A stretch of DNA of 64,000 bases. It comes from Candidatus Cybelea sp. Its GTDB lineage: Bacteria; Vulcanimicrobiota; Vulcanimicrobiia; Vulcanimicrobiales; Vulcanimicrobiaceae. Under the pieces are notes generated by a model, which worked only from the letters and a program-made list of their open reading frames with translations, had not been told where the DNA came from and did not search any database. Position 1 is the first letter of the stretch, and each line of letters opens with the position of its first letter. Location of the stretch: positions 15,528-79,527 of the forward strand of contig JBAUYZ010000068.1 in NCBI GenBank assembly GCA_049585055.1, in the 5' to 3' direction. Shown in pieces: positions 17,781 through 49,817 of the stretch. The position numbers and the translations under genes are program-made.

Positions 17781-17877
17781 CGTTCGTCCTTCGTGGTTCG
17801 TCCTTCGTCCTTCGACTCCGGCGCTTCGCGCCTGCGCTCAGGATGACACAGCTTGGCGCCTGCGCTCAGATGACACA
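17781..17877 (+). repeat. REP/MITE-like intergenic element (CCTTCG xN, CCTTCGAC, hairpin, GCTCAGGATGACAC; 1.5 copies)
   Basis: The sequence reads ...TCCTTCGACTCCGGCGCTTCGCGCCTGCGCTCAGGATGACACAG CTTGGCGCCTGCGCTCAGATGACACAG. Confidence 0.85.
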
Positions 17878-17904
17878 GTCTGGCGGAGCTACGTCAGAGT
17901 TTCG

Positions 17905-20022
17905 CTAGCGGAGGAAGGCTACTAGTAGGAGGGCGACGATGTTGAGGACTTTGATCATTGGGTTGATTGCGGGGCCGGCGGTGTCTTTGTAGGGATCGCC
18001 GACCGTGTCGCCGGTGACGGCTGCCTGATGCGCGATCGAGCCTTTGCCGCCGTAGTTTCCGTCTTCGATGTATTTCTTGGCGTTATCCCAGGCGCCGCCG
18101 CCCGATGTAAACGAGATCGCGACGAAGAAGCCCGTGACGATCGAACCCAGGAGAATGCCGCCCATCATCTGCGCGCCGGTATCGCCGGGGAAGACGCCGG
18201 TGAATGAGAGGATGACGACGAGCAACGGAACGCCGACCGGAATCAATGCCGGAACGATCATCTCGCGCAGCGCCGCTCGCGTGACGATGTCGACGGTCGT
18301 TGCATAGTTCGGCCGCGCGGTGCCTTCCATGATGCCGGGAATCTCGCGGAACTGACGGCGCACTTCCTCGACGACCGAACTGGCGGCGCGTCCGACGGAC
18401 TGCATCGAGAGCGACGCGAAGAGATAGGGAAGGAGGCCGCCGATGAAGAGTCCGGTGAGCACGAACGGATTGCCGATTGCGAAGAGATTGCGAACGCCGT
18501 TGGTACAGGCGATCGTCGGCACGCCCGGGCACTTGTGGTTGATCAGTTGCTGCAGGAACGAGGCGAAGAGGACGATCGCGGCGAGCGCGGCCGAGCCGAT
18601 CGCGTAGCCCTTGGTGACGGCCTTGGTCGTATTGCCGACGGCGTCGAGCGGATCGGTGACGGCGCGCACGTCGTCCGGCATATCGGCCATCTCGGCGATG
18701 CCGCCGGCGTTGTCGGTGATCGGGCCGAACGAGTCGATCGCGACGATGATTCCCGCCATTGAGAGCATCGACATCACGGCGATGCCGACGCCGTAGACGC
18801 CCGCCATCGCGTAGCTGACCAGGATGCCCACCACGATGACGATTGCGGGTAGTGCCGTCGCCTGCATCGAGACCGCGAGACCGGCGATGATGTTCGTCGC
18901 GTGACCGGTGAGCGAAGCCTTTGCGATCGAGCGTACCGGTCCGAACTGCGTGCCGGTATAGTATTCGGTTATGAGCGTGATAAGCGCCGTGATAACGATG
19001 CCGACGACCGCACAGATGAATATGCTGTTCTGGCCGATGCCCGCGGCAACGGCCTCCGGCGCGCCGAAGACACGCTGCGTGGCAAAGTAGAAGCCGATCA
19101 GCGCGAGAATGCTGGCGACCACCATTCCACGGTAAAGCGCGGCCATGATCTTCGTTTTGCGGACCTGGCCGACGCCGACGAAGATGACGCCGACGATCGA
19201 AGCGACGATCGAGACTGCGCCGAGTAGGAGCGGGAACGTGGTTGCGTTCGGAATCGCCGCGCCGAAGAGCAGATTGCCGAGCAGCATCGCGGCGACCGTC
19301 GTAACGCAGTACGTCTCGAAGAGGTCGGCCGCCATGCCGGCGCAGTCGCCGACGTTGTCGCCCACGTTATCGGCAATGACGGCCGGGTTGCGCGGATCGT
19401 CTTCAGGAATTCCGGCTTCGACTTTTCCGACCAGGTCGGCGCCGACGTCGGCGGCCTTCGTATAGATTCCGCCGCCAAGACGCGCAAATACGGAGATCAG
19501 CGAGCATCCGAAAGCGAGCCCGACCATCGCGTTGAGCGACGTGGCGGAATCGCCGTTGTTGACGGCTTGGAGTATCGCGTAATACCCAGAGACGGCGAGC
19601 AGTCCCAGACCGACGACCAACATGCCGGTAACCGAGCCACCGCGAAATGCGACGTTGAGCGCCGGCGTAAGGCCGCCGCGCGCCGCTTCGGCCGTGCGAA
19701 CGTTCGCGCGCACCGACACGACCATCCCGATGAAACCGGCAGCTCCCGAAAGGATGGCGCCGATCAAGAAACCGATGGCGGCTTCCTTGCCGAGCGTCGG
19801 AGCGAAGAGTATCACGATCGCGAGAACGATTGCGACGATCCCGATCGTCATATACTGACGCTGGAGAAATGCCATCGCGCCTTCTTGGATCGCGAGGGCG
19901 ATCTCGCGCATGCGCTCGTTGCCGGCGGGCTGGGCGATCACCCAGAAGGTCAGCGCGATGCCGTAGAGCACCGCGAGGGCTCCGCCGATAAGTCCGGTGT
20001 CGATCGCTGTCTGTGCGGTCAT
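17905..20022 (-). CDS. hppA: membrane-bound H+-translocating pyrophosphatase (K+-independent type)
   Basis: A 705-aa ORF with [20 protein letters not shown] and [15 protein letters not shown] (Lys rather than Ala) is the published K+-independence signature. Confidence 0.95.
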
Positions 20023-20039
20023 GATTTTCCTTAAGTTTT

Positions 20040-20066
20040 AGTAAAAATACGGCCCGAAAGGGCCGA
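20040..20066 (-). terminator. terminator-like hairpin inside the hppA 5' leader
   Basis: The minus strand reads CGGCCC-tttc-GGGCCG then TATTTTTAC. It sits about 20 nt upstream of the hppA RBS/ATG, and there is no upstream co-oriented gene for it to terminate. Confidence 0.4.
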
Positions 20067-20192
20067 CTAGCCCGCCTACTCCCTTTGGTTGCGCAAGTCC
20101 TCGCAGGCGGTCGCCGAAAGTTCGGGTGATGCACGGAGGCGAGAGCACGGAACTCCTCATCGTCGGCCACGGCTCCGCGAGGGGGACCTGCC

Positions 20193-20906
20193 GTGGCTAA
20201 GCCGCTACCCGACCGCGAGCAGATCATCCATCAGTACTTGCACCTGGTGAAGTACGTAGCGGATCGGCTCTCGGCCAACCTCCCCGCGAACGTTGACACC
20301 AACGACCTCGTCAACGACGGTGTCTTCGGACTGATCGATGCGATCGAAAAGTTCGACGCTGCTCGAGCCGTCAAATTCGAAACCTACGCAATCGCGCGTA
20401 TCACCGGGGCGATGCTCGACGCGTTGCGCTCCCTCGACTGGGTTCCACGGACGGTTCGGCAACGGGTGCGCGAGGTTCGCCGAGCGTTCGAAGGTTTGGA
20501 GTTCGAGCTGGGACGCGATCCCACCGATGCAGAGCTCGCTTGCAGGCTGCACGTGTCGGTGCAAGAACTCGACCGCGTTCGCCAGCGCGCGCGCGCGACG
20601 AGCATGCTTTCGCTCGAAGAGCCGGTGCGCAGCGGCGACGACCGCGATCGCTTCGTCGGCGACACGCTCCCGGATATTGAGAGCGACGTCGAGCGGGCGC
20701 TCGAGCGCGTGGAATCCCTTCGCGAACTCGTCCGGGCGGTCGAAGCGCTGTCGGCTGACGAGCGTACGGTGATTCGCCGCTACTACTTTAAAGCGCAGAC
20801 GCTCAGGAAGATCCGGGACGAGCTCGGCATTTCGGAATCGCGCGTCTCACAGATCCACGCACAAGCCGTCGTGCGTCTTCGCCAATATCTCCAACAGGCA
20901 GAGTAG
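20193..20906 (+). CDS. fliA: FliA/WhiG-type (sigma-28 family) RNA polymerase sigma factor
   Basis: GTG start after GAGGGGGA. Regions 2, 3 and 4 are recognisable (DLVNDGVFGLIDAIEKFD..., RTVIRRYYFKAQTLRKIRDELGISESRVSQIHAQAV). Confidence 0.85.
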   Translation: MAKPLPDREQIIHQYLHLVKYVADRLSANLPANVDTNDLVNDGVFGLIDAIEKFDAARAVKFETYAIARITGAMLDALRSLDWVPRTVRQRVREVRRAFEGLEFELGRDPTDAELACRLHVSVQELDRVRQRARATSMLSLEEPVRSGDDRDRFVGDTLPDIESDVERALERVESLRELVRAVEALSADERTVIRRYYFKAQTLRKIRDELGISESRVSQIHAQAVVRLRQYLQQAE

Positions 20907-20981
20907 GGAACGCAGTCCGGCCAAAAAATGCTGCAAAATGCGCCTGAGAAACAATCGTCAATCCCAGGCGGTACTGCCAAT

Positions 20982-22049
20982 ATGAGGACATCGGTTTTCG
21001 GCATGCTTTTGGTCATGCTTTGTTGCGGGCAGACGCCGCCTATCAACGGTCTTGCTGCGGTAGCAGACCGCGCAGCCGAAAGGGCGATGACGATCAAGCT
21101 CGCTCCCGGCGTCGTCGTCCTCGTCGCATCCCATGGTCGAGTGATTTTCCTGCGCGGGTACGGGGTACGCGACCTGAAAAGCCGACGCCCGGTCACTCCG
21201 AACACGCACTTCGAGATTGGCTCGGTCACGAAGCAGTTTACTGCCGCGGCGATCATGCAGCTGCTCAACGCCGGTAAGCTATCGCTCGAGGACACCTTGA
21301 GCAAGTACGTCCCAACATATACCGCCGGCGCCTCAGTTACGATACAGCAGCTTCTTTGGCAAACGTCGGGTATTCCGAACTACGTCGAAAATCCCGATAT
21401 TATGAAGATAGCTTCGACGGTGCAACCGTCTCTTGCGGGCGTTTTGAACTTGATCGCGCACAAGCCATTACGATTCACCCCTGGGACAGAATGGGCGTAC
21501 AGTAACACAAACTATTTTCTATTGGCCCACATCATCGAGGTCACATCGGGCGAGACATACCAGCAATATCTTCGCGAATACATCTTCAAACGCGCTGGTA
21601 TGAGCGACACCGGCTTCGTCTCCGACGAACCTCGACTCGCCGACATGGCTCGTGGTTACCTGACGTCGGTTGGAGCAGTCGTGCCATCGCCGAGGTTCTT
21701 CAGCGGATGGGCCGCCGGAGCGGGTGATATTGTTTCAACGGCGCCGGACATGAACAGGTGGGACGATGCGCTTCTTGCCGGCAAGCTCGTTCCCATGCGC
21801 TACGTCGGTATGATGCGCACCTCGGGCAAGCTGAAATCGGGAAGCTCAACGGGTTACGGCATGGGCTGGTACATCCACGAGCCTAAAAACGGCGCGGTTA
21901 TCATATGGCACAACGGTGGGACCTTCGGATTCAGCGCCGACAACAACACCTACCCGAGTAGCGACGCAACGATCATTGTGATGGATAACAACATCGCGGC
22001 CGATGCCGAAAACGTAGCCGCAGAGATTTCTGTAGGAATACATTTGTAA
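20982..22049 (+). CDS. serine hydrolase, beta-lactamase/PBP (class C-like) family
   Basis: Motifs SVTKQF (SxxK) and YSNTNY (YxN) are present, with a signal peptide from the ATG at 20982. The track ORF starts at 20928. Confidence 0.85.
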   Translation: MRTSVFGMLLVMLCCGQTPPINGLAAVADRAAERAMTIKLAPGVVVLVASHGRVIFLRGYGVRDLKSRRPVTPNTHFEIGSVTKQFTAAAIMQLLNAGKLSLEDTLSKYVPTYTAGASVTIQQLLWQTSGIPNYVENPDIMKIASTVQPSLAGVLNLIAHKPLRFTPGTEWAYSNTNYFLLAHIIEVTSGETYQQYLREYIFKRAGMSDTGFVSDEPRLADMARGYLTSVGAVVPSPRFFSGWAAGAGDIVSTAPDMNRWDDALLAGKLVPMRYVGMMRTSGKLKSGSSTGYGMGWYIHEPKNGAVIIWHNGGTFGFSADNNTYPSSDATIIVMDNNIAADAENVAAEISVGIHL

Positions 22050-22102
22050 TGCGGCGCGCCCCGCGCTATGGTCAACGTTCCGCTGGGCACCGCGGTCAGC
22101 CG

Positions 22103-23164
22103 CTAGGTTTCGCCGTCGAAGTAGTCGAGGGTTGGACTCGCCCTCACGATGATCGAATCGGCGCCTTTGATGAACGGCGATAACGTGCCCAGCAGCAGCT
22201 TGTCGGAGTCGGGATAGTAGCAGGCTTCGACGTCTTCGGCTCGCGCGAGGAGCAGCACCGTCGCGGGAGCGCCGCTTTCGTTGAGGAGTTGATGCGTGCC
22301 GCTTTCACCGACCGGTAACGCGATGAAATCGCCCTTTCGGCAACGAATCGTTCCCGAGAGAGTGCGGACGCTCGGCTCGCCGTCGATCACGAAGAAGAGC
22401 TCCTCCTCACGCGCGTGGCCGTGCAGCGGGCAGAAGCGCTGCCCCGGATCGAGCGTGCTGACGCGATAGCCGAGCTTGCGGGCACCGATCGCGAAGCCGA
22501 CCTCGGCATCGAGGCATGCGAACTGCGTGGGCTGATCTGAATGCTCGGCGCGTTCGCCAAGAAACTCGAGCTCGTCGAGATTGATTCGCAGCACTTCGGC
22601 GCCGGCGCGAGCGTAGAGAAGCTCGTAGAGCGCCTCGTAGGCGCCGGAGAGCAACGAGTGGCCGCGACTCAATAGCAGCCGCTGCGGGTTCTCCCGGAGG
22701 ATCGCGCGCAGACCGAGCGCGGCTTTGCGCTGGTCGGCGTACGCGCCGGCGTCGGCCATTGCGAGCGCGCCGGCCGGTGCGCCGGCGAGCGAATCTCCGG
22801 CGACGACGGTGCGCCGTTCGGGAAGGCTGAGAACGAACTCATCCTCGCGCCACTGATCGGGAAGCCGGATCGCGACGACGCCCGAAGCGATGCATTCGCG
22901 GTGCCCCGGGCGAGCAACCACGGGAGCTCCGTATCGCTCGGCCAGCTCTTGCGCCGTCCGGGCGCGATCGGGCGACATGACCACGATGCAAGAAATGCCG
23001 CCGAGCCGTGTGATGGCCTCGTGCGTCGCTGCATCGAACGGCAGCGGATCGACGAGCACGTTGCCGTCCTCGGTGACGAGAAAATGGCTCGCGGCGACGA
23101 AAGGCGGCTCGGGCAAGAGGTGCGCGAAGAGGTAGATGCCGGGAATAGAAAGCGGTTGCAGCAT
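22103..23164 (-). CDS. two-domain protein: MBL-fold-like N-terminus plus C-terminal cupin
   Basis: The C-terminal sequence PLHGHAREEELFFVIDGEPSVRTLSGTIRCRKGDFIALPVGESGTHQL is a cupin motif. The N-terminal assignment is weak, as I saw no HxHxDH motif. Confidence 0.6.
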   Translation of the reverse strand: MLQPLSIPGIYLFAHLLPEPPFVAASHFLVTEDGNVLVDPLPFDAATHEAITRLGGISCIVVMSPDRARTAQELAERYGAPVVARPGHRECIASGVVAIRLPDQWREDEFVLSLPERRTVVAGDSLAGAPAGALAMADAGAYADQRKAALGLRAILRENPQRLLLSRGHSLLSGAYEALYELLYARAGAEVLRINLDELEFLGERAEHSDQPTQFACLDAEVGFAIGARKLGYRVSTLDPGQRFCPLHGHAREEELFFVIDGEPSVRTLSGTIRCRKGDFIALPVGESGTHQLLNESGAPATVLLLARAEDVEACYYPDSDKLLLGTLSPFIKGADSIIVRASPTLDYFDGET

Positions 23165-23186
23165 GGTGGGCGCAGTAGTACTACGT

Positions 23187-23846: not shown

Positions 23847-23894
23847 AAGAGTAATCCGTTAGGTGCTACGATGGAGTGTGAAAGGAGCTATCCG

Positions 23895-25200: not shown

Positions 25201-25246
25201 CGTCCTTCGACTGCGCTCGCTTCGCTCGCTCCGCTCAGGATGACAC
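25201..25246 (+). repeat. REP/MITE-like intergenic element
   Basis: The sequence is CGTCCTTCGACTGCGCTCGCTTCGCTCGCTCCGCTCAGGATGACAC. Confidence 0.85.
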
Positions 25247-25351
25247 GAGGGAAATTCCGCGGCTAGTCAGGCCTTACGTAGAGGAGGGCCACTAAGCTGT
25301 ATGCTGGCTCAGGACGACTAAGGCGCACGCTGCGCTGCGATAATCGCGCGT

Positions 25352-27814
25352 TTATTGCTTAGCATCGGCGATGATCGAGGCGGCCATGTCCCAAGCTTCG
25401 TCTTCGTCGAGCCGTGCTCCGGCCTCGGTCAAGCGCACGAAGTCGTCGGCGCTGAGACGGTCGCGCAACAACGCTTCGAGGTCGCGGCGCTCGCGCTCGT
25501 CGGAGGGATCGTGAAAGCGACGCGCTTCGAACCAGGCGGCGGAGTATCCGAGCAGTTCCGCGGCCGCTTCGAAATCGTGTTGCATTGCGCTCAATCGCGC
25601 CGTATTCCGCACCGCTCGGGCCACCATCAAGCCGTCATCGCCGGCGCGCTGCGCTGCGTCGACCGCCGCACTGAGATCCTGCGCCGCGCCGCGGGGATCG
25701 TTTACGTGCAGCCGGTAGACCGCCATGTTGTTGAGCGTCGTCGCCTCGAGATACGTCAAATTCTCGCGCCGAAAAACAGCGAGGCATTCACCGGCGTGGC
25801 GCAAGGCACTCTCGAGGTCCCCTTCCAAGAAGAAGGCTTCGGCGATGTTGTTCTGTGTGACCGCGGCGCGCCCGGTGTCGCCGCGCGCCGTCGATATTTC
25901 GCGGGCCTTCCCCCACGCGGTGCGCGCGGCTTCGAGCTGCCATTGATAGTTGAGCAGGTAGCCTTCTTGAAAGTAGAGCGAACCCAAGAAATCGGAATCG
26001 TCGAGACCGAGCTCGTGGTAGAGTGCGCGAGCGAGGCGGTGCGCTTCTAGCGCTTCGGGAGTGCGCCCAAGCTGCGCGAGGGCATAACTGCGTCGCTGGT
26101 AGGCTTGCAGCAGCGTCTTGCTTCGCAAACCGGCGCCCCCCAGCACTTTTATGGCGCCCTCCGCCGCGTCGAGAGCTTCGGCTCCGAGCGTCACCAGCGC
26201 AACTTCGATCAGCATCTCGGCTTTGAGCTCCGGACCGATGCGCGCGATTGCCAATACTTCCCGAGTGTGTTTCACGAGCTCGTGGCGAAAGTTTTGAACC
26301 AAGAACTCGCGCGCATCTCTGAGAATGCCGGCCGCAATCTCCGGTGCGTTTGCATTCGTCAGAGACCAGGTGAGCGCTGCGCGGATGTTTTCGGCATCCG
26401 CGCGCAAGAGCGAGAGGCGGTGTTTAGAGCCGGCGATCGAGCGACTTCGCTGCGCCAACGCCGCTACGAACTCGGCGTGGCGCCGGGCGATCGCTTCTCG
26501 CTCGTTTAACTCGTCGAGTCGTTCGGCGGCGTAGGCGCGTGTCGACTCGAGAAGATCGTAGCGCTGCGCGTCGTCGCCGATCTGAGCGACCACGAGAGAC
26601 TTGTCGACGAGGGAACCGAGCAGATCCAAGACCTCGTGAGATTCGGCCATCTCGCCGCTTAGAGGAGGCAGATCGTCGAAGAGGCTCGTGGCGCCCGTCA
26701 AGGTCCAGCCGCCGGCGAAGAGCGAGAGCCGCCGGAGCAGGCGTCGTTCTTCGTCGGTGAGCAAGTCGTAGCTCCAGTCGATCAGGGCGCGCATCGTTTT
26801 CTGGCGCGGTAACGCGTCTTCGCCGGCCGCAATCAGCACGCGAAAACGTTCGTCGAGCTCGCGGAGGAGCCGCGCGGCTGGGAGATCGGTCACCCTGGCC
26901 GCGGCAAGTTCGATCGCCAACGGAATGCCGTCCAAACGCTTACAGATCGCAGCGATCGTTTCGCCGTCGCCGTCGGTGGCGTCGAACGACGGATCGGCCG
27001 AGCGCGCGCGCCGGTTGAAGAGCGCGACGGCGTCGTCGACCGCGAGTGGCGGCATGCGATAGACGTACTCGCCGGAGACGTGAAGCTGCTCTCGACTCGT
27101 CGCCAGAACCCTCACGAGCGGGCATTGGATGAGAATCGCTTTGGTTACGCGAGCCGCTTCGTCGACGAGGTGCTCGCAGTTGTCCAAGACGAGGAGCAGC
27201 TCCTTATTGCGAAGCCGCCGCTGCAGCGTTTCCACCACCGGTGTATCGGCCTGTTGCGCCACGCCGGCGGCAAAGGCAACGGCTCCAGCAACCAGCTTTG
27301 GATCGGCCAGAGACGCAAGTTCGACGAACCAGACGCCATCGCGAAATCGTTCGACGAGCCCGGCCGCGACCTCGACGGCCGTGCGGCTCTTCCCGATGCC
27401 TCCCATACCGGCCAGCGTTACGAACCGCTTTTCAGCCAGGAGCGAACGAAGGCTCGTGACGATATCGTCGCGCCCGATCAGCTCTGGAAGCTGCCGCGGA
27501 AGATTATCTCGACGGGCGGCGGGGCGTTCGCTCGAGGGGCTCCGGTCGGGCAAGCGTTGCCGCCCGGGTCCGCGGAGCCGCCCGCGCTCGGCGGCAATGC
27601 GCAGGCGGTTGTACTCTTCGCCTTGGATCTTGAGTGCCTCGACGATCAGCACGAACGTGTCGCGCTGCGGCGCGCGGCGCGTGCCGCGCTCGTAGGCTCC
27701 AACGGCTTGCACGCTGATGCGTGCGCGCTTGGCGAGTTGTTCTTGCGAGAGACCGGCTTGGGCCCGCAGCTTCTTGAGCAGCGTTCCGAAGTCCGGAGCG
27801 AGAGCGTCGAGCAC
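25352..27814 (-). CDS. STAND NTPase: XRE-type HTH + NB-ARC-like P-loop + TPR array
   Basis: Recognisable parts: HTH (LRAQAGLSQEQLAKRARISVQAVGAYERG), Walker A (GMGGIGKS), Walker B (LLVLDNCEHL), and a long C-terminal TPR-like region. Confidence 0.85.
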   Translation of the reverse strand: MLDALAPDFGTLLKKLRAQAGLSQEQLAKRARISVQAVGAYERGTRRAPQRDTFVLIVEALKIQGEEYNRLRIAAERGRLRGPGRQRLPDRSPSSERPAARRDNLPRQLPELIGRDDIVTSLRSLLAEKRFVTLAGMGGIGKSRTAVEVAAGLVERFRDGVWFVELASLADPKLVAGAVAFAAGVAQQADTPVVETLQRRLRNKELLLVLDNCEHLVDEAARVTKAILIQCPLVRVLATSREQLHVSGEYVYRMPPLAVDDAVALFNRRARSADPSFDATDGDGETIAAICKRLDGIPLAIELAAARVTDLPAARLLRELDERFRVLIAAGEDALPRQKTMRALIDWSYDLLTDEERRLLRRLSLFAGGWTLTGATSLFDDLPPLSGEMAESHEVLDLLGSLVDKSLVVAQIGDDAQRYDLLESTRAYAAERLDELNEREAIARRHAEFVAALAQRSRSIAGSKHRLSLLRADAENIRAALTWSLTNANAPEIAAGILRDAREFLVQNFRHELVKHTREVLAIARIGPELKAEMLIEVALVTLGAEALDAAEGAIKVLGGAGLRSKTLLQAYQRRSYALAQLGRTPEALEAHRLARALYHELGLDDSDFLGSLYFQEGYLLNYQWQLEAARTAWGKAREISTARGDTGRAAVTQNNIAEAFFLEGDLESALRHAGECLAVFRRENLTYLEATTLNNMAVYRLHVNDPRGAAQDLSAAVDAAQRAGDDGLMVARAVRNTARLSAMQHDFEAAAELLGYSAAWFEARRFHDPSDERERRDLEALLRDRLSADDFVRLTEAGARLDEDEAWDMAASIIADAKQ

Positions 27815-28211: not shown

Positions 28212-28290
28212 GTCCTTCGCCCTTCGACTACGCGCCTGTGGCGCTACGCTCAGGATGACACGCGGCTGTGGCGCTACGCTCAGATGACGC
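28212..28290 (+). repeat. REP/MITE-like element (1.5 copies)
   Basis: The sequence is GTCCTTCGCCCTTCGACTACGCGCCTGTGGCGCTACGCTCAGGATGACACG CGGCTGTGGCGCTACGCTCAGATGACGCG. The core GCGCC-tgt-GGCGC forms a hairpin. Confidence 0.85.
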
Positions 28291-29514
28291 GAAACTAAGG
28301 CCGCGCGTTTCTTTGCGCACGAGATAACCGAGCAGCGCGAGCACGAAGACCGAGGCGAAGACGCCGGCGGTAACGATGGCCATCGCGGCGGCGTAGTTCG
28401 GAGCGCCGTTGGATAGCGGGATTTTGGTCGCGAGAATAGCTTCCATCTGCGCGACGCCCGCGACGAGCAGGTTCCCAAGCTGATACGTGAAGCCGGGAAA
28501 CGTGCCGCGTACTTCGCCCGGCGAGAGTTCGTTCAGATGCGCGGGAATAACGCCCCAGCATCCTTGCACGGCAAGTTGGATGAGGAAGGCGCCGAGCGCG
28601 AGCGACGCGATCGTCGAGCTGAAGATCCAGAGCGGTATCACGCAGGCGCCGGCCACCGAGCAGAATATGACCGCGATGCGGCGGCCGAAGCGCTCCGAGA
28701 GCGTGCCGAAGCCGATGCTACCGATGATCGCACCGATCGCGCCGACGATCGGGAGCAGCGACGTGGTGCCGGTCGAGAAGCCGTGCTGCTTTTGCAGAAA
28801 CGTTGCGTAGAGATCTTGGGTGCCGTGCGACATCGCGTTAAGCGCGGCCATGAAAGCGATCGCGTAGAGGAAGAGCGGCCAATGCGCCAGGATCGATTTC
28901 AGCAGGAAGTTCGGCGCGACGGCGATGCGCTGCGCACGCCCTTCGAGCCAGACGGGCGACTCCGGGACTCCGGTGCGGATGTAGAAGATGAGCAGCGCCG
29001 GCAGCGCGCCGATGATGAAGAGCGCGCGCCAATCCCAATGCGTGAAGGTGAAGACGAAATAGTAAACCCCGGCAGCGAGGAGAAAGCCCCACATGTAGCC
29101 GCTCTGCAGCATGCCGCCGATCAGCCCGCGGCGGTGGGGCGGCAGCATTTCCATCGTGAGCGCCGCACCCAATCCCCACTCGCCGCCCATCGCAACGCCG
29201 TAGAGCGCGCGTAAGACGAGAAAGACGGTGAAGTTCGGCGAAAAGGCCGTGGCCAACTGGATTATCGAGTAAAAGCCGATGTCGATCATCAGCGGCGTGC
29301 GCCGTCCGTAGCGGTCGCCGAGCCATCCGAAGATGAGCGCGCCGATCGGCCGGCACATGAGCGTAAGCGTGAGCGCGAACGCGACCTCGGCGACGGTTTT
29401 ATCGAAGGTCGTCGCGATGCGCGTGATGACGAAGGTGAGAAGAAGAAAGTCGAACGCGTCGAGCATCCATCCAAGGAAGCTCGCGACGAACGTTCTGCGG
29501 GCGGCGGAAGTCAC
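28228..29514 (-). CDS. MFS transporter
   Basis: A 428-aa, 12-TM-like protein with GDRYGRR and ERFGRR loop motifs. The last roughly 20 codons and the stop codon lie inside the repeat at 28212-28290. Confidence 0.85.
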   Translation of the reverse strand: MTSAARRTFVASFLGWMLDAFDFLLLTFVITRIATTFDKTVAEVAFALTLTLMCRPIGALIFGWLGDRYGRRTPLMIDIGFYSIIQLATAFSPNFTVFLVLRALYGVAMGGEWGLGAALTMEMLPPHRRGLIGGMLQSGYMWGFLLAAGVYYFVFTFTHWDWRALFIIGALPALLIFYIRTGVPESPVWLEGRAQRIAVAPNFLLKSILAHWPLFLYAIAFMAALNAMSHGTQDLYATFLQKQHGFSTGTTSLLPIVGAIGAIIGSIGFGTLSERFGRRIAVIFCSVAGACVIPLWIFSSTIASLALGAFLIQLAVQGCWGVIPAHLNELSPGEVRGTFPGFTYQLGNLLVAGVAQMEAILATKIPLSNGAPNYAAAMAIVTAGVFASVFVLALLGYLVRKETRGLSFASSERSATAACHPERSATGA

Positions 29515-29690: not shown

Positions 29691-29930
29691 TGTGGTTCGT
29701 GGTTCGACTACGCTCCCTGCGGTCGCTGCGCTCACCATGACACGGCTGCGGTCGCTGCGCTCACCATGACACGTTGGGGGTCGCTGCGCTCACCATGACG
29801 CGGCTGCGGTCGCTGCGCTCACCATGACACGTTTGGAGCTATGCGCTCCTTCGACTACGGCGCTGCGCGCCTACGCTCAGGATGACACATGCGGTACTTC
29901 AGCGCTGCGCGCCTACGCTCAGGATGACAC
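29691..29930 (+). repeat. compound repeat: about 4 tandem units of variant GGTCGCTGCGCTCACCATGACAC, then 2 standard GCGCCTACGCTCAGGATGACAC units
   Basis: Read directly from the sequence. The units abut one another with no unique spacers. Confidence 0.85.
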
Positions 29931-33780: not shown

Positions 33781-33976
33781 CGTTCGCCCTTCGTCCTTCG
33801 CCCTTCGACTTCGCTCGCTACGCTCGCTGCGCTCAGGATGACACAATTCGAGGTGACACGTTCGAGATGACACGTTTGGGATGACACGTTTGGGATGATA
33901 CGTTTGGGATGATACGTCCGAGATGACTGGTCCTTCGACTCCGCATCGCTTCGCGATGCTACGCTCAGGATGACAC
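33781..33976 (+). repeat. REP/MITE-like compound element filling the pstS-pstC gap, including about 7 tandem 14-nt GATGACACGTTTGG-type units
   Basis: A standard unit at 33781-33845 is followed by GGTGACACGTTCGA GATGACACGTTTGG GATGACACGTTTGG GATGATACGTTTGG GATGATACGTCCGA GATGACTGG, then a second standard unit ending at 33976. Confidence 0.9.
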
Positions 33977-33977
33977 G

Positions 33978-34916
33978 GTGGTAGAGCCGCAGTTTAGGCG
34001 CGTAGCGCGTTTCGTTAGTCCCGCCGATCGCGGCTTTGCTGCGGTGGTCTACGGCGGAAGCATTCTCTTTGCAGTGTTGATCGTCGGCCTCTTTGTCGAG
34101 CTGGTGCTCGGATCGTGGCCCTCGATTGTGACGTTCGGGCCCTCGTTCATTTGGAAGAGTTCCTGGGATCCGATAACGAGTAAGTTCGGGGCGCTCCCGA
34201 TGATCTACGGGACCGTGGTGACGTCGTTCATCGGGATCATCCTGGCCGCATTCGTCGGGATCATGGCGGCCGTCTTTCTCGCCGACTTCGCGCCGCGGTG
34301 GCTCGCGACGCCGCTCTCGTTCTTGATCGAGCTGCTGGCGGCGGTCCCGAGCGTCGTCTACGGCTTGTGGGGGCTCTTCGTGCTCTCGCCGTTCGTACGC
34401 ACCGTCATCGGACCGGCGCTCCAACACGTCCTGGGATGGACTCCGCTCTTCTCGGGGCCGATCTACGGCGTGGGCCTGCTGACCGCGGGCATTATTCTCG
34501 CCTTGATGATCGTTCCGACCGTCACGGCGATCTCGCGCGACGTGATCGCGGCGATACCGCGCGACCTGCGCGAAGCCTCAATGGCGCTCGGCTCGACGAG
34601 ATGGGAGACCGCGACGCGCGTGGTACTGCCCGCCGCGCGCGTGGGAATCTTCGGAGCTTGCGTACTCGCGCTGGGCCGCGCGCTCGGCGAGACGATCGCG
34701 GTGACGATGGTGATCGGCAACCGGCCGGAGATCTCCGCCTCACTCTTCGCGCCGTCGTATACGCTGGCTAGCGTAATCGCCAACGAGTTCACCGAGGCGA
34801 CGACCAGCATTTACATCAGCGCGCTGATCGAGTTGGGTCTGATCCTCTTCGTGGTGAGCATCGTCGTCAACGCGCTCGCGCGGTTCATGATCTGGAGCGT
34901 TCGGGGATCGCGATGA
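33978..34916 (+). CDS. pstC: phosphate ABC transporter permease PstC
   Basis: SWPSI lies near the N-terminus and the EAA-type loop [14 protein letters not shown] is present. The GTG start is 7 nt after AGGA, which belongs to the last repeat copy. Confidence 0.92.
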
Positions 34917-36610: not shown

Positions 36611-36655
36611 CGCCCTTCGACTGCGCGCCTGCGGCGCTACGCTCAGGATGACACG
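36611..36655 (+). repeat. REP/MITE-like intergenic element (single consensus-like copy)
   Basis: The sequence is CGCCCTTCGACTGCGCGCCTGCGGCGCTACGCTCAGGATGACACG. Confidence 0.85.
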
Positions 36656-44170: not shown

Positions 44171-44231
44171 AATCTAAGGATGACACGCGGGGCCGCTCCG
44201 CGAATTGCTCCCAGTCAAGGAGGACGCGGCT

Positions 44232-44972
44232 GTGTTTGAAGGTCGAGTAGCAGTGGTTACCGGCGGTACTCGTGGCATCGGTGCCGCCATTACCGAGTGT
44301 CTTGTGGATAATGGGGCTTCCGTCGCGGCCGGCTACAACCGCGGCCGCGAGAGCGCCGAAAAGTTCGCAGGGCAGATGACGGAAAAGGGCGCGAAGGTTT
44401 CGATCCATCAGGGCCGGGTCGACGACCGCGACGATTGCAATCGCGTCGTCAAAGAGGTGATGGACCGCTTTGGGCGCGTCGACTACCTGATCAACAATGC
44501 GGGCATTACCGTCGACAAGACGGTGCGCAAGATGACGATCGCCGATTGGCGTCAGGTGCTCGAGGTCAACCTCTCGGGCGCCTTTCAAATGACCAAGGCG
44601 GTGCTCGAGCACATGATCGAACGCGGCTCGGGGCGGATTGTGAACATCAGCTCGGTCATCGGCGAGACCGGCAATATCGGGCAGGCGAACTACGCTGCGT
44701 CGAAGGCCGGTTTGTTCGGATTCAGCAAGAGCCTGGCCCTGGAGATGGCGCAGCGCGGAATCACCGTAAACTGCGTCGCGCCGGGTTTCATCGCGACCGA
44801 GATGGTCGCGGCAATCCCCGAAGCCGCGCTTGCAAAGGTGGTCGAGAAGATTCCGCAGCGGCGTCTCGGACGCCCCGATGAGGTCGCGCGAGTCGTTCGT
44901 TTCTTGCTCGAGGACGACTCGAGCTATATTACCGGCGCGGTCTTCAGCATCAACGGCGGGCTCGATATGTGA
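44232..44972 (+). CDS. acetoacetyl-CoA reductase-like SDR (PhaB/FabG type)
   Basis: Motifs TGGTRGIG, NNAGIT, GQANYAASKAG and ITVNCVAPGFIATEM are present. GTG at 44232 lies 8 nt after AAGGAGG. Confidence 0.85.
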   Translation: MFEGRVAVVTGGTRGIGAAITECLVDNGASVAAGYNRGRESAEKFAGQMTEKGAKVSIHQGRVDDRDDCNRVVKEVMDRFGRVDYLINNAGITVDKTVRKMTIADWRQVLEVNLSGAFQMTKAVLEHMIERGSGRIVNISSVIGETGNIGQANYAASKAGLFGFSKSLALEMAQRGITVNCVAPGFIATEMVAAIPEAALAKVVEKIPQRRLGRPDEVARVVRFLLEDDSSYITGAVFSINGGLDM

Positions 44973-45036
44973 CTCGGCGAGCTCACGCCGGCCGGCCCTA
45001 GAGGTTTTGGAAGGCGGCGTTGGGTAAATCTAGCGC

Positions 45037-45792
45037 GTGGATAGTTTACCTCTCAGAGAACGCGTTGGAGTCGTCACCGGGGGATCGCGCGGCATCGGCG
45101 GGGCGATCAGCACCCTACTCGCCGAGGATGGAGCGACGGTCGCCATACTCGGATTACCCGAAGACAAAGCTCGGACCCAGCATCTCGCGGCGCGCCTCAA
45201 CGGCGCTGCCCCGAGGCTGCACTTCTACGAAACGGACGTCGCGAACTACGATCGCTGTCAGGAGGCGGTGGCGGCGGTGCTGCGCGAGCACGGTCGCATC
45301 GACATGCTCGTGAACAATGCGGGCATCACCCGAGATCACACCGTCCGCAAGATGACGGTCGACGAATGGGAAGCGGTCCTGCAGGTGAATCTGTCGGGGC
45401 CGTTTTTTATGATCAAGGCCGTGCTGGATTCGATGGTCGAGCGAGGATACGGGCGGATCGTCAACATTAGCTCGGTCGTGGGGGTGAGCGGGAACTTCGG
45501 CCAGGCAAACTACGCCGCCGCCAAGGCCGGGCTGATCGGCCTGACCAAGACCGTCGCGCGGGAGGTCGCCAAGCGCGGAATCACCGTCAACGCGGTCGCG
45601 CCCGGTTTCATCGACACCGACATGACTCGCGCGATGCCGCTGGCAGCGATTGAGAACGCCATCGAGCAGACGCCGCGAGCGAGGCTCGGAAAGCCCGACG
45701 AGGTAGCGCAGCTGGTGCGCTTCCTGCTCGACGAAAAGGCCGGCTACATCACGGGCGCGGTGTACAATATCAACGGCGGATGGTACATGTAG
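45037..45792 (+). CDS. acetoacetyl-CoA reductase-like SDR (PhaB/FabG type), second copy
   Basis: Motifs TGGSRGIG, NNAGITRD, GQANYAAAKAG and ITVNAVAPGFIDTDM are present. Confidence 0.85.
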   Translation: MDSLPLRERVGVVTGGSRGIGGAISTLLAEDGATVAILGLPEDKARTQHLAARLNGAAPRLHFYETDVANYDRCQEAVAAVLREHGRIDMLVNNAGITRDHTVRKMTVDEWEAVLQVNLSGPFFMIKAVLDSMVERGYGRIVNISSVVGVSGNFGQANYAAAKAGLIGLTKTVAREVAKRGITVNAVAPGFIDTDMTRAMPLAAIENAIEQTPRARLGKPDEVAQLVRFLLDEKAGYITGAVYNINGGWYM

Positions 45793-45793
45793 C

Positions 45794-47554
45794 GTGATGA
45801 ACCAAACGATGGCGCCGGAAGAGCTGAGCTACGGCATCGACGTCACCGGGCTCGATCCCGCGTCGCTGACCGATGCGCTTCGGGCGGTGATCGCCGACGT
45901 GATGATGGATCCGATGCGGATGAGCACCTGGCTCGCCGGCTTCGCACTCGCGGAACAGAACGTCGGGCTGCGAATGCTGCAGCGTTTGAGCGGGATGCCG
46001 TCCTTCGACAGCGGCCCCTTCGACGGGCTCAGGAGCCGCGCTCAGGATGACAAGGTCTCAGACAAACGGTTCGCGGATGCGGAGTGGAGCAGCAATCCAT
46101 TTCTGGCCGGGCTGGTGGAAGATTACAAGGCGCGTACGCAGGCGGCTCTGCAGCTGGTCGATTCCGCGCGGCTGCCCGAGGCGACGCGCCGTAAGGCGCG
46201 CTTCGCGATGCAGCTCATGTGCGACGCCGTTGCGCCGAGCAACGTGCCGTGGATAAACCCGGGCGTCGTCAAAGAGGCGACCGAGACCGGCGGTATGAGT
46301 CTCGTACGCGGCTTGCAGAATTTTCTCGACGACGTCAAAAACAACGGCGGGTATCCGCGTCAAGTCGACAAGTCGGGTTTTCGTTTGGGCGAACAACTGG
46401 CGGCGACCCCGGGGCGAGTCGTGATGCGCAACGAGCTGATAGAGCTCATTGCCTACGAGCCGCAGACGCCGCAAGTGCACGAGATCCCGCTGCTCTGCAG
46501 CCCGCCCTGGATCAACAAGTACTACATCATGGATTTGGCTCGGGGGCGCTCGTTCGTCGAGTGGGCCGTGCAACACGGTCATCAGACGTTCATGATCTCC
46601 TACCGGAACCCCGACGAAACGATGTCGCACTACACGATGGATCACTACCTGCGCGAGGGCGTGCTCGCCGCGATCGACGCCGTGCAGGAGATCACCGGAG
46701 CGCCTCAGCTCAACATCACCGCGCTCTGTCTTGGCGGCACGCTCGCGCTGATCGCGATGGCCTACCTTGCGGCGCACGGTCAAGGGAACCGCGTCGCGTC
46801 GGCGACGCTCACCAACACGCTGGTCGATTTCAGCATTCCCGGAGAGCTCGGGGTTTTCACCGACGAGGACACGATCGCGCGCCTCGAAAAACGGATGCGC
46901 GAGCGCGGGTATCTGGAGCCCGCGGAAATGGCGCGGACGTTCGATTGGATGCGTTCGAGCGATTTGATCTGGAGCTACGTCGTGAATAACTGGTTCAAAG
47001 GCAAGCAGCCCTCGGCGTTCGACATTCTGGCTTGGAACAACGATTCGACGCGAATGCCGGTCGAGATGCATTCGGAGTATCTGCGGGCCTGCTACCTGTA
47101 TAACGCAATCGTGAAGCCGGGAGCTTTCGTGATCGGCGACACGCCGATCGATCTGGGAAAGGTCGTCGCGCCGCTCTACGTACTCGGTGCGGAGAACGAC
47201 CATATCGCGCCGTGGCGCGCGACGTATCTGACGACGCAGCACGTCGGCGGCGAGTCGAAATACGTGCTGACCAATGCGGGGCATATCGCCGGCATCGTCA
47301 ATCCTCCCGGCGGCAAGAAGACTTGGCACTACGTAAAGCCGCGGGTTGCGCGGGGCGAGACGGCGGACGAGTGGCTGGAGAGCGCCGACCGCTACCAGGG
47401 CTCGTGGTGGCAGGATTGGGCGGAGTGGGCGCAGACGCACGGCGGCGCGATGCGCGCGCCGTACTCTATCCCGGATGGAGAACCGGCTCCCGGGCGTTAC
47501 GTGGCCAACGAGTCGGGCGACTTGTTCGCACCGCGCATTGAGGCGAAATCATGA
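45794..47554 (+). CDS. phaC: class I poly(R)-hydroxyalkanoate synthase
   Basis: Motifs DKRFADAEWSSNPF, PLLCSPPWINKYYIMDL and FMISYRNPD are present, with a lipase-box-like ALCLGGT carrying the catalytic Cys. The protein is 586 aa. Confidence 0.92.
   Translation: MMNQTMAPEELSYGIDVTGLDPASLTDALRAVIADVMMDPMRMSTWLAGFALAEQNVGLRMLQRLSGMPSFDSGPFDGLRSRAQDDKVSDKRFADAEWSSNPFLAGLVEDYKARTQAALQLVDSARLPEATRRKARFAMQLMCDAVAPSNVPWINPGVVKEATETGGMSLVRGLQNFLDDVKNNGGYPRQVDKSGFRLGEQLAATPGRVVMRNELIELIAYEPQTPQVHEIPLLCSPPWINKYYIMDLARGRSFVEWAVQHGHQTFMISYRNPDETMSHYTMDHYLREGVLAAIDAVQEITGAPQLNITALCLGGTLALIAMAYLAAHGQGNRVASATLTNTLVDFSIPGELGVFTDEDTIARLEKRMRERGYLEPAEMARTFDWMRSSDLIWSYVVNNWFKGKQPSAFDILAWNNDSTRMPVEMHSEYLRACYLYNAIVKPGAFVIGDTPIDLGKVVAPLYVLGAENDHIAPWRATYLTTQHVGGESKYVLTNAGHIAGIVNPPGGKKTWHYVKPRVARGETADEWLESADRYQGSWWQDWAEWAQTHGGAMRAPYSIPDGEPAPGRYVANESGDLFAPRIEAKS
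45999..46052 (+). repeat. REP/MITE-like sequence in frame inside phaC
   Basis: The sequence GTCCTTCGACAGCGGCCCCTTCGACGGGCTCAGGAGCCGCGCTCAGGATGACAAG encodes SFDSGPFDGLRSRAQDDK, just upstream of the conserved DKRF...W..NP motif. Confidence 0.65.
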
Positions 47555-47922
47555 GCGACGATGAAAAGAACGCCGCCGGCGGCGCCTGGCGCAGCCTTGG
47601 CGACTTCATACGCGGCCAGCGGGAGCTGGCGAATCTCTCGATGCGGCAGCTCGCCGAAATCGCGAAGATTTCGAACCCGTATCTGAGCCAGGTCGAACGC
47701 GGCCTCTACAAGCCTTCAGCCGACGTTCTCAAGAACATCGCCAACGCGCTGCAGATCTCGGCCGAGACGATGTACACGCAGGCGGGGCTGCTCGACGACT
47801 CGCCAACCCGCGAAGAGAGCCATCACGGCGTCGAGCATGCGATAAAAATCGATCCGCGCCTTACCACCGACCAGAAAGAAGCGATCATCCGCATCTACCG
47901 GAGCTTCGTCGGAAGAGAGTAG
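47551..47922 (+). CDS. XRE-family HTH protein translationally coupled to phaC
   Basis: ATGA overlap with the phaC stop. The HTH is LSMRQLAEIAKISNPYLSQVERGLYKPSADVLKNIANAL. Confidence 0.8.
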   Translation: MSDDEKNAAGGAWRSLGDFIRGQRELANLSMRQLAEIAKISNPYLSQVERGLYKPSADVLKNIANALQISAETMYTQAGLLDDSPTREESHHGVEHAIKIDPRLTTDQKEAIIRIYRSFVGRE

Positions 47923-47932
47923 TCGTCGTCGA

Positions 47933-48277
47933 TCAAAGGCGCTTTCTACGTCTGCGCGGACGTGATCTGTCGGATTCTTTGATGGCTTGGTATTGCGGAT
48001 AGCCTTCGGCGAGGCGAAGGAGAAGAGCTCGTAATTCTTTGGCTGCCGGGTAGAGCGGGTCGAGCGTGAGAGTACGGACCGCCCGCTGACTCGAAGCGAT
48101 CAGGCCCTCGCGTTCCAAGTTATCGAGCGCTCGCTGTATCGACGAAATGGGCGTACCTGAATGCCTCGAGAGTTCCGCAGGGTAGGTTTCCCCCAGGACA
48201 GCGATGAGGAGGAGGAGCCGCGTGCGCAACTCGCTGCCGAAGATCGACGAGGCGGGAAGATTGGAGGTTCGGTCCAT
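47933..48277 (-). CDS. winged-helix (ArsR/MarR-like) transcriptional regulator
   Basis: The sequence is RTRLLLLIAVLGETYPAELSRHSGTPISSIQRALDNLEREGLIAS. It is divergent from the phasin-like gene. Confidence 0.7.
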   Translation of the reverse strand: MDRTSNLPASSIFGSELRTRLLLLIAVLGETYPAELSRHSGTPISSIQRALDNLEREGLIASSQRAVRTLTLDPLYPAAKELRALLLRLAEGYPQYQAIKESDRSRPRRRRKRL

Positions 48278-48279
48278 AC

Positions 48280-48319
48280 GTATACTGATTAGTATAGCGG
48301 ACTATACTGAGGTGTATAG
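48280..48319. promoter_or_regulatory. operator-like array of GTATA[CG]/CTATAC hexamers
   Basis: Hexamers: GTATAC at 48280, GTATAG at 48292, CTATAC at 48302, GTATAG at 48314. They form the inverted repeats GTATAG-N4-CTATAC and CTATAC-N6-GTATAG. A fifth GTATAC overlaps the -10 element at 48391. Confidence 0.5.
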
Positions 48320-48367
48320 CTATGCTGCCTGAGTACGCAAGTGGAGCAAAATTCGGCATGCCATCAG

Positions 48368-48397
48368 TTGACAGATGCAGCATGTGCTTGGTATACT
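48368..48397 (+). promoter_or_regulatory. sigma-70-like promoter for the phasin-like gene
   Basis: TTGACA (48368-48373), an 18-nt spacer ending in TGg, then TATACT (48392-48397). Confidence 0.55.
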
Positions 48398-48440
48398 TAG
48401 CACAACCAATAAGGATACCGATGAGGAGAATCAGTTCACC

Positions 48441-48779
48441 ATGGCCGTCAACGTTTCAGAGTACATGAACAAGTTTCAGCAAGAGAGTCTCGCCGCGATG
48501 AAAGAGACGCAAGAGGCGGGCCTCAAGGCGATGAGCTCGTTCCGCGAGTTCGGCAAGGAGCTCAACGAGAAGCCCGGCACGATGCCGACGTTCGAGAACA
48601 TGCCGACCCCGACCCAGCTCGTCGAGTTCTCGTTCGGCTTCGCCAGCCAGCTGCTCGAGATGCGCAAGACCTTCGCGCTTCGCATCGCCGAGATGATGGT
48701 TGAGACGCAGAAGCAGACCGAGGCAACCTTCAACGCCGCGACGATGGCGAACAAGCCGTCCTCGGCTCCCGTCAAGTAA
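48441..48779 (+). CDS. phasin-like small helical protein
   Basis: A 112-aa Ala/Glu/Lys/Met-rich amphipathic sequence located next to phaC. The ATG at 48441 lies downstream of the predicted promoter, and the track start at 48375 falls inside that promoter. The assignment rests on context rather than a motif. Confidence 0.5.
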   Translation: MAVNVSEYMNKFQQESLAAMKETQEAGLKAMSSFREFGKELNEKPGTMPTFENMPTPTQLVEFSFGFASQLLEMRKTFALRIAEMMVETQKQTEATFNAATMANKPSSAPVK

Positions 48780-48804
48780 ATCGTTCGAGCCCTCTCTATC
48801 GAGC

Positions 48805-48839
48805 GACCGCCCGGCAAACGCCGGGCGGTCTTTTCTTTT
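48805..48839 (+). terminator. intrinsic terminator
   Basis: GACCGCCCGGC-aaac-GCCGGGCGGTC followed by TTTTCTTTT. Confidence 0.85.
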
Positions 48840-48858
48840 GCCCCACGAAGAGCGCGCG

Positions 48859-49749
48859 ATGAACGCGTCAACGACGATCACGATCGGCAACGAGCTCTCC
48901 GTCAAGCGCCTCGGCTACGGGGCGATGCGGCTCTGCGGACCACTGATCATGGGCTGGCCGCAAGATCGCGAGAATGCGCTGCGCGTGCTGCGGCGCGCGA
49001 TCTCACTCGGCGTGAATTTCATCGATACGGCCGATGCGTACGGCCCGCACATCAACGAGGAGCAGATCGCGCAGGCGCTCCATCCGTATCCGAGCGATCT
49101 CGTTATCGCAACCAAGGGCGGCTGCACGCGTCCCGATGGGCGCTGGGAACGTGACGGGCGGCCGGAGCACCTGAAAGAAGCGTGCGAGGGGAGTCTGCGG
49201 CGCTTACGGGTCGATCGCATCGACCTCTATCAGCTCCACGCGGTCGATACGGAGGTTCCGCTCGAAGAACAGGCCGGTGCGTTGAAGGAGCTGCAAGAGG
49301 CCGGGAAGATCCGTTTCGTCGGGCTTTCGAACGTGGATCTGGAGCAGGTGCAGCGAGCGCAGCGCGTCGTGAAGATCGCGTCGGTGCAGAACAACTACAA
49401 CGTCGGCCATCGTCTCAGCGAGCCGGTTCTGGAGTATTGCGAGCGCAACGGGATCGTTTTCATCCCGTACTTTCCGCTCGACGGCGGGGACTTGGCGGAG
49501 GTCGAAATGCTGACCGCAATCGCGCAAGCTCACGGCGCGACGATCTGGCAGGTCGGGTTGGCGTGGCTGCTCGCGCACTCGCCGGCGTTGGCGCCGATAC
49601 CGGGAACGTCGTCGCTCGATCATCTCGAGGAGAACGTCGCTGCGTCGGCATTAAAGCTGAGTGACGAGGAGGTGGCGATGCTCGATGCGCCCTTCGCCCT
49701 TCGTCCTTCGTCCTTCGACTCGCTGACGCTCGCTCAGGATGACACGTGA
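48859..49749 (+). CDS. aldo/keto reductase
   Basis: Motifs GYGAMRL, IDTADAYG, LVIATKGG and LRRLRVDRIDLYQLH are present. The C-terminal sequence APFALRPSSFDSLTLAQDDT and the stop codon are encoded by the repeat. Confidence 0.88.
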   Translation: MNASTTITIGNELSVKRLGYGAMRLCGPLIMGWPQDRENALRVLRRAISLGVNFIDTADAYGPHINEEQIAQALHPYPSDLVIATKGGCTRPDGRWERDGRPEHLKEACEGSLRRLRVDRIDLYQLHAVDTEVPLEEQAGALKELQEAGKIRFVGLSNVDLEQVQRAQRVVKIASVQNNYNVGHRLSEPVLEYCERNGIVFIPYFPLDGGDLAEVEMLTAIAQAHGATIWQVGLAWLLAHSPALAPIPGTSSLDHLEENVAASALKLSDEEVAMLDAPFALRPSSFDSLTLAQDDT

Positions 49750-49817
49750 GACGCTCGCTCAGGATGACACGGGGGGCTACGCTCGTGATGACACGGGGGC
49801 TACGCTCGCGATGACAG
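49688..49817 (+). repeat. REP/MITE-like compound element (CCTTCG x4, then about 4 GCTC[AG][GT]GATGACA units)
   Basis: Read directly from the sequence. It fills the whole convergent gap between the AKR gene and PE5. Confidence 0.85.

Follow-up and report, generated by a model that had tools for sequence, protein, structure and literature searches.

The 64-kb stretch of a Candidatus Cybelea genome analysed here (the window, C68:15528-79527) carries many copies of a short, imperfectly palindromic repeat, and we consider it likely that the dispersed elements serve an Ssn-type nuclease as its recognition hairpins. The genome is a metagenome-assembled one (115 contigs, 3.11 Mb, 96% complete), and its nearest relatives are metagenome-assembled genomes of Vulcanimicrobiota/Eremiobacterota. 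The candidate nuclease, a small GIY-YIG protein, is encoded outside the window on contig C19, between inverted copies of the repeat. Judged by sequence comparison, the best-supported reading is that the repeats and the C19 gene would together form an Ssn system in a sequence variant missed by the published motif. Ssn nucleases were first described in 2025, and with the pairing reported here the range of this nuclease-repeat system would come to include a soil phylum without cultivated members.

The repeat family and its GIY-YIG partner gene

A search of the window for the 14-mer GCTCAGGATGACAC with at most 2 mismatches gave 17 matches, all on the + strand (shuffle expectation 0.39; none of 100 shuffles reached 17). 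An earlier note on this DNA had described a dispersed family resembling repetitive extragenic palindromic (REP) sequences or miniature inverted-repeat transposable elements (MITEs), uniformly oriented and built of CCTTCG-type units, CCTTCGAC, a GC hairpin, GCTCAGGATGACAC and 3' modules. The family, its single orientation in the window and, on reading of the loci, its architecture were all recovered. The copies named in that note were found in place; four intragenic copies, one in phaC and three in lipoprotein leaders, had been overlooked. Reverse copies had been reported as absent, which is correct for the reverse 14-mer in the window and not for the core, as three lipoprotein composites hold a reverse core unit CCCTGAGCCTGTCGAAGGG nested within the forward frame. 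The literal hexamer string CCTTCGCCTTCGAC was not enriched because one variable base separates the hexamers (G[T/C]CCTTCG).

On the forward strand, the 5' part of the long form consists of 1-5 G(T/C)CCTTC hexamer-type units followed by CCTTCGAC and CTNCG, and its 3' part of a variable GC-rich arm, a TNC loop, the complementary arm, CTNCG and CTCAGGATGACAC. Tandem 3' modules, each composed of (3' arm)-CTNCG-CTCAGGATGACAC, often follow the long form. The short form, CCTTCGAC-ARG-CTCAGGRTGAC, is devoid of the inner hairpin. When the whole genome was searched for GCTCAGGATGACAC with at most 1 mismatch, 185 matches were obtained in 141 loci, and 11 adjacent inverted pairs were among them. A looser pattern detected the family in 60 of 151 genomes of the phylum Vulcanimicrobiota/Eremiobacterota, with up to 377 copies per genome; apart from four copies in one genome of another family, all carriers among these 151 genomes belong to a single taxonomic family. 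The exact 14-mer is limited to the genus, and a near-identical core is also present in Stella vacuolata (Alphaproteobacteria). An Rfam scan of the window matched no family to the elements, only a tRNA reaching the gathering score, and nothing relevant was found in the literature on repeats in Eremiobacterota.

A search for genes situated between inverted element copies identified a 97-aa GIY-YIG open reading frame (ORF) at C19:50224-50517 (minus strand), with the conserved core VKSYFVYMVRCADGSFYTGITNNVEYRVGQHN. PF01541 matched residues 4-76 of the 97-aa core (E = 2.9e-16) and no other domain was matched, which agrees with the single-domain organisation of Ssn proteins. The genome holds one full-length copy of the gene and a weak partial match on contig C84. 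In the sense of the gene, the C19 locus reads GTGTCATCCTGAGC...GTCGAAGGGCGA, then the ORF, then CCCTTCGTCCTTCGAC...GCTCAGGATGACAC twice, so that the gene is preceded by one element in reverse orientation and followed by two in forward orientation. The same flanking was seen in related genomes: among 20 ssn-like loci (this genome and 19 from relatives), reverse elements were present upstream in 18, forward elements downstream in 16 and both in 15, and in two closed relatives (G033 and G040) each of the two ssn-like copies lies between an inverted element pair. The repeats beside each ssn-like gene are the variant proper to the same genome, for example CAGCGTGAC, CACCTCAGGGTGAC or a GG/CC swap; the swap found at 29692-29846 of the window also flanks ssn-like genes of other genera. 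The orthologous ORFs are ~100-200 aa long, the surplus length consisting of repeat-derived 5' extensions.

The gene and the repeats occur together across genomes. Strong homologues (E 1e-20 or better) were found in most element-bearing genomes of the family. The gene was present in 20 of the 24 genomes that hold at least 20 elements and in 1 of the 12 that hold 0-1 (Fisher p = 2.3e-5, kinship ignored). Stella vacuolata encodes a 49%-identical homologue beside CCTTCGACTGCGCTCAGGRTGA, a repeat present in 11 copies in that genome, and the gene-repeat pair therefore crosses phyla.

SsnA of N. meningitidis, a 94-aa single-domain GIY-YIG protein (cd10448), binds the NTS repeat CGTCATTCCCGCGMAVGCGGGAATCYRG as single-stranded DNA (ssDNA) only and on one strand only; its cut falls immediately 5' of the hairpin, and double-stranded DNA and RNA are not cleaved (Chenal et al. 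2025, Nat Commun, PMC11893778). The usual gene arrangement is NTS-ssnA-NTS, the NTS starts with CGTCAT, the conserved GTCAT-type sequence upstream sets the orientation of the repeat, and, where a genome holds more than 200 such motifs, a homologue is encoded in 81% of cases (PMC11893778). The complementary strand of our elements has the same layout as the NTS, GTGTCAT followed by CCTGAG-(loop)-CGAAGG; we therefore read the elements as a family of Ssn-related motifs (SRMs) and the C19 gene as ssn. By inspection, the general SRM layout is present: GTCAT, then a 6-bp stem, a loop and a 6-bp stem. The likeness extends to a ~95-aa single-domain GIY-YIG protein whose gene lies between inverted hairpin repeats (an SRM-ssn-SRM arrangement), to tens to hundreds of mostly intergenic copies that co-occur with the gene across genomes, and to a conserved 5' GTCAT that, followed by a stem-loop, gives the element its direction. 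The differences lie in the published motif, which the elements do not match; in the basal stem, which here has tandem G.A pairs; in the nested second hairpin (GNA triloop), (CGAAGG)n tail and tandem half-modules of most copies; in the host, an uncultivated Eremiobacterota lineage; and in a chromosomal domain of uniform orientation, not described for the NTS.

By homology with characterised Ssn proteins, the C19 protein would cut the GTCAT strand when it is single-stranded. Copies might then multiply or be exchanged through repair following such cuts, and replication slippage on the hairpin could generate the tandem modules. The position of the gene between inverted copies is comparable to that of a REP-associated tyrosine transposase (RAYT) between its REPs.

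Several observations weigh against assigning the repeats and the gene to an Ssn system. The published degenerate SRM motif, HGTCWYN(0-2)YYVSBRHN(0-5)WNVSBRGN(0-2)RNCYNB (PMC11893778), found 22 sites in the genome compared to 10 in the backwards-read control, and 0 of the 22 are these elements. The best solved relatives of the 97-aa protein are the UPF0213 proteins 1zg2 (E = 4e-12) and 1ywl (E = 1e-9), and no NCBIfam model matches it. The co-occurrence statistic takes no account of shared ancestry; four genomes with 22-34 elements are devoid of a strong homologue and one gene-bearing genome has a single element. Nearest-neighbour DNA folding of either strand gives the short inner hairpin only, with z-scores of -1.6 to +1.9. 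To our knowledge, GIY-YIG nucleases have no strand-joining activity, and the multiplication of the copies is not accounted for. As the published motif misses this repeat architecture, surveys of SRMs probably undercount such systems.

Strand of folding and competing identities

The sequence statistics point to the complementary strand (5'-GTGTCATCCTGAG...CGAAGG) as the one that would fold. It reads 5'-GTGTCAT-CCTGAG-[loop or insert]-CGAAGG(CGAAGG)n. GTCAT would be the conserved single-stranded 5' part and the source of the direction of the element; an intrinsic direction, as had been suggested from the letters, is supported. CCTGAG and CGAAGG would make up a basal stem whose two central pairs are G.A and, in the long form, the loop would be replaced by CGNAG-arm-GNA-arm'-CGNAG, which adds a second stem with a C-GNA-G mini-hairpin at its tip.

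In 79 parsed long-form copies, 321 of 371 positions of the inner arms are Watson-Crick, and 42 of the 50 exceptions are tandem T.C/C.T on the forward strand, which are tandem G.A/A.G on the complement. The base preceding CCTTCGAC covaries with the R of CAGGRTGAC (Fisher p = 0.0003, short forms); this outer pair is C.A in 45 cases and T.G in 1, read on the complement as G.T versus A.C. Compensated variants of the basal stem NNTGAG...CGAAN'N' were also found (CC/GG 158, GG/CC 7 including the unit at window 29692-29846, and GC/GC 7), and the observed level of basal-stem pairing was reached by 0 of 2000 shuffles. The three N positions (the two CGNAG flanks and the loop) are hypervariable. The apical loops are TNC in 79 of 79 parsed copies, which gives C-GNA-G on the complement, often exactly GCGNAGC or CCGNAGG. 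The d(GCGNAGC) mini-hairpin is exceptionally stable in DNA, melting at 70-76 degrees C, and escapes standard energy models (PMC13037366, PMC3201870). Such mini-hairpins share the C-GNA-G apical loop with the GTCAT strand of our elements; they are known from priming sites of ssDNA phages and plasmids as physico-chemical motifs and not as a dispersed repeat family. The unremarkable folding energies fit this structure because standard models miss the stability of d(GCGNAGC); given these energies, it is from the sequence statistics that the extended structure is argued. The G.A tandems and GNA mini-hairpins are sequence-level evidence for the folding strand and would provide ready substrates with which to test a new cleavage specificity.

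A further arrangement was observed at loci L103, L160 and L161 and in matches from genomes G011 and G178, where a reverse core unit TCCTGAGC...GTCGAAGG is nested in the loop of a forward unit. In this nested form, the outer 5' part can pair with the inner 3' part or the inner 5' part with the outer 3' part, and either pairing precludes the other.

The earlier note had suggested that the strand bias would fit a mechanism linked to replication direction, such as a RAYT/IS200-type ssDNA transposase. On this reading, the elements would be REPs, bacterial interspersed mosaic elements (BIMEs) or IS200/IS605-derived miniatures mobilised by a Y1 HUH transposase (RAYT/TnpA), their orientation being set by insertion into the lagging-strand template. 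Much of their appearance suits such an origin: they are short extragenic palindromes in high copy number, hundreds in some genomes; they often form BIME-like inverted pairs (in one related genome, G178, most copies sit in inverted pairs, and pairs of two unit types predominate); and they are uniformly oriented in the window. They also prefer gene 3' ends, as expected of REP-like sequences, the 89 intergenic loci being distributed over 35 convergent, 41 co-directional and 13 divergent spacers compared to 19%, 60% and 21% of all spacers. The enzyme, however, is missing. A PF01797 profile search of this 96%-complete genome found no match while control genomes gave the expected ones, and the profile was found in 6 of 121 genomes of the family, including some with 0-1 elements and not the element-richest ones, with no relation to element counts. 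The orientation of the elements is not coupled to replication across replichores either: in two closed genomes, 28 of 58 and 39 of 71 loci follow the replichore defined by GC skew. The RAYT/Y1 reading is largely refuted by these observations and we leave it next to no chance of being right; a REP/RAYT family with replication-coupled strand bias was a tempting misreading, which is corrected here. What stands of it is the notion of a dedicated enzyme recognising the element as ssDNA, which is very probable, the likely enzyme being of the GIY-YIG type and not a RAYT. REP/BIME/REPIN-RAYT systems remain similar in their 3'-end palindromes, inverted pairs of two unit types, flanked single-copy enzyme gene and long vertical persistence in a lineage; they differ in that no Y1 transposase is present here and that the flanked gene encodes a GIY-YIG nuclease, for which DNA joining is not known. 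Elements that act mainly as RNA, as 3'-end hairpins stabilising or terminating transcripts with the nuclease association being secondary, would account for the two-fold excess in convergent spacers and the deficit in divergent ones, and for the many copies that abut or overlap stop codons; RNA also tolerates G.A tandems and G.U pairs. Such a role would nevertheless require a fixed orientation relative to the upstream gene, and the two orientations in co-directional spacers number 24 versus 17. The hairpin is not followed by a T-run, no Rfam family matches, the predicted RNA and DNA folding energies are unexceptional and characterised Ssn proteins do not bind RNA (PMC11893778). With the repeat-flanked nuclease gene of ~20 genomes also left unexplained, we regard a mainly RNA-level function as very unlikely.

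Three other identities were rejected: intrinsic terminators, as the hairpin has no following T-run; an autonomous element with these ends, as no transposase-like gene lies between inverted copies and most pairs flank ordinary genes or lipoprotein paralogues; and integron attC sites, as the intervals between copies are occupied by housekeeping genes that point either way, with no IntI search made. Rickettsia palindromic elements resemble ours in that in-frame copies are tolerated in proteins (here in lipoprotein leaders, phaC and gene termini); they are unrelated in sequence to our elements, which lie mostly between genes. In G166, a closed genome of the family, a true IS200/IS605-type element is represented on contig C1 by five near-identical copies of a Y1 transposase, alongside 66 elements and an ssn-like gene. 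A Y1 element and the Ssn-like system can therefore coexist independently.

Orientation and the terminus-proximal domain

The single orientation in the window is not a genome-wide bias. The 141 loci of the genome are distributed almost evenly over the two strands (74 + and 67 -) and, once contig C68 is excluded, their orientation has no link to local GC skew. The relation to the replichores that had been proposed for the family was examined in two closed relatives. G033 is a single contig of 3.15 Mb, in which GC skew changes from negative to positive at 1.55 Mb (sampled profile). The forward motif lies on the G-rich strand at 28 of its 58 loci; no significance was reached in the runs test, and p was 0.056 in a block-scan permutation. 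G040 (contig C3) measures 2.91 Mb, and its skew maximum near 1.2 Mb was taken as the terminus (sampled profile). Its loci are replichore-consistent in 39 of 71 cases overall and in 21 of 53 outside a single run of 18 loci. The counts in both genomes indicate that replication direction does not orient the family in general.

The run of 18 loci in G040 is unbroken, all +, and extends from 747 to 1037 kb (longest-run permutation p = 0.001); with a relaxed motif, the same region holds 28 + and 1 - copies. The window is collinear with 953-1047 kb of G040. In G033, the same region (235-650 kb, inverted) has ~10 - and 1 +, and on the syntenic contigs of the present genome the loci are consistent in 10 of 10 cases on C68, 3 of 3 on C10, 3 of 4 on C96 and 2 of 4 on C24. 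Combined, these results indicate that the all-plus orientation seen in the window belongs to a conserved domain of ~290 kb close to the terminus and not to the replichore. The mirror region across the terminus is not polar in G033 or G040. Gene orientation does not account for the polar domain, which in G040 contains 148 + and 85 - genes with elements in all types of spacer. Local orientation-preserving spread was also considered and rejected, as loci 1-15 kb apart outside C68 and C46 agree in 20 cases and differ in 21.

That count also speaks for the view that the uniform orientation of the window reflects chance or the simple inheritance of a few ancestral insertions, with no orienting force. 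The runs tests that are not significant in G033 and G040 go in the same direction, as does the finding that some copies are orthologous between species. It is difficult to reconcile chance or inheritance with the 28:1 ratio maintained over 290 kb in G040, with its longest-run p value, or with the ~10:1 ratio of the same region in G033. The positions of the elements turn over between species, so that uniformity is kept despite gain and loss. We hold this explanation to be rather unlikely.

In all three genomes, it is the G-rich strand that carries the forward motif in the polar domain; as deduced from GC skew, replication would thus use the GTCAT strand as the template of the leading strand. 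It is conceivable, if quite doubtful, that the sites of the domain are kept one-way, with the cleavable GTCAT strand in every case on the side of the leading-strand template, either because the opposite orientation is selected against or because the polarity serves a chromosome function. If so, the pair formed by Ssn and its repeat would be a strand-aware feature of the chromosome, and more than a selfish or transformation-related one. The transformation model does not predict that sites keep a regional polarity that is conserved.

On G040:C3 and G033:C1, GC skew rises to as much as 0.06 in the few hundred kb next to the inferred terminus, far above the ~0-0.01 seen around the inferred origin, and C68 has the highest GC skew in its genome (+0.04).

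Copies in the window and their turnover

The copies in the window are listed in Table 1. The genes beside them are ordinary and lie on both strands: they encode an H+-pyrophosphatase, a STAND NTPase, a major facilitator superfamily (MFS) transporter, threonyl-tRNA synthetase (ThrRS), PstS and PstC, a phosphoesterase, PhaC and an aldo/keto reductase.

Table 1. Elements and element-derived sequences of the window (positions counted from its first letter)
Position	Strand	Description
8209-8246	+	Composite copy GCCCTTC-(CCCTGAGCCTGTCGAAGGG)-TCAGGGTGACAC, in frame right after the lipobox cysteine of a lipoprotein gene
9198-9235	+	Sister lipoprotein-leader composite
13049-13088	+	Sister lipoprotein-leader composite
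17781-17876	+	Long-form element 3' of the hppA stop: hexamer array, core CCTTCGAC-TCCG-GCGC-TTC-GCGCC-TGCG-CTCAGGATGACAC, one extra 3' module
25202-25246	+	Long-form element; inner arms GCTCGC/GCTCGC form tandem T.C/C.T mismatches (complement: G.A/A.G)
25304-25320	+	Partial 3' module CTCAGGACGAC
28212-28290	+	Long-form element and one 3' module; overlap with the 3' end of the MFS transporter gene on the minus strand (28228-29514), stop codon included
29692-29846	+	Variant unit with compensated basal stem GGTTCGAC...CTCACCATGAC replacing CCTTCGAC...CTCAGGATGAC; four tandem 3' modules
29846-29930	+	Standard long-form element and one 3' module
33781-33976	+	Block filling the pstS-pstC spacer: long-form unit (33781-33844), tandem array of period ~14 nt ending in GATGACAC (33845-33929), second long-form unit (33930-33976)
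36611-36654	+	Single long-form element between convergent genes
44173-44186	+	Degenerate 3' end only, TCTAAGGATGACAC
45999-46053	+	Element-derived sequence, in frame within phaC (45794-47554)
49688-49813	+	Long-form element with an array of four hexamers, plus three more 3' modules; overlap with the aldo/keto reductase gene at its 3' end

The occupation of individual sites varies within the genus. The pstS-pstC spacer is empty (4-21 nt) in 14 of 28 congeners; in the other congeners it is filled by a short, multi-module, nested or long form, oriented without exception as in the window, and in five of them only degenerate remnants are present. In a tree of pstS and pstC, filled and empty states are interspersed and sister pairs differ, and several gains or losses must therefore have occurred within one genus. 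On the 3' side of hppA, the elements of the window and of G033 share place and orientation, with entirely different inner stems. Only part of the sites of the window are occupied in G033.

Some copies reach into coding sequence. In filled pstS-pstC spacers (window 33930-33980, L085-L109), the 3' end of the element, AGGATGAC..., directly precedes or even supplies the start of pstC, and the N-terminus of PstC differs between species with filled and with empty spacers. In many paralogous phosphoesterase-type lipoproteins of the window, of C46:9050-33306 and of C32, element-derived sequence is translated right after the lipobox cysteine (e.g. ...GC-ALRQAQGDT... and ...SAVLSEAQRAESKGQDDT...); C46 carries more than 15 such lipoprotein genes in a tandem array.

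Two further features of the window adjoin elements. An 820-aa HTH(XRE)-NB-ARC/STAND-TPR protein (window 25352-27814) is encoded between two element loci. The MFS transporter gene, bordered by an element on either side in the window (28228-29514), stands the other way round with respect to its neighbour in G033 (238209-239412), and the breakpoints of this rearrangement fall at element sites.

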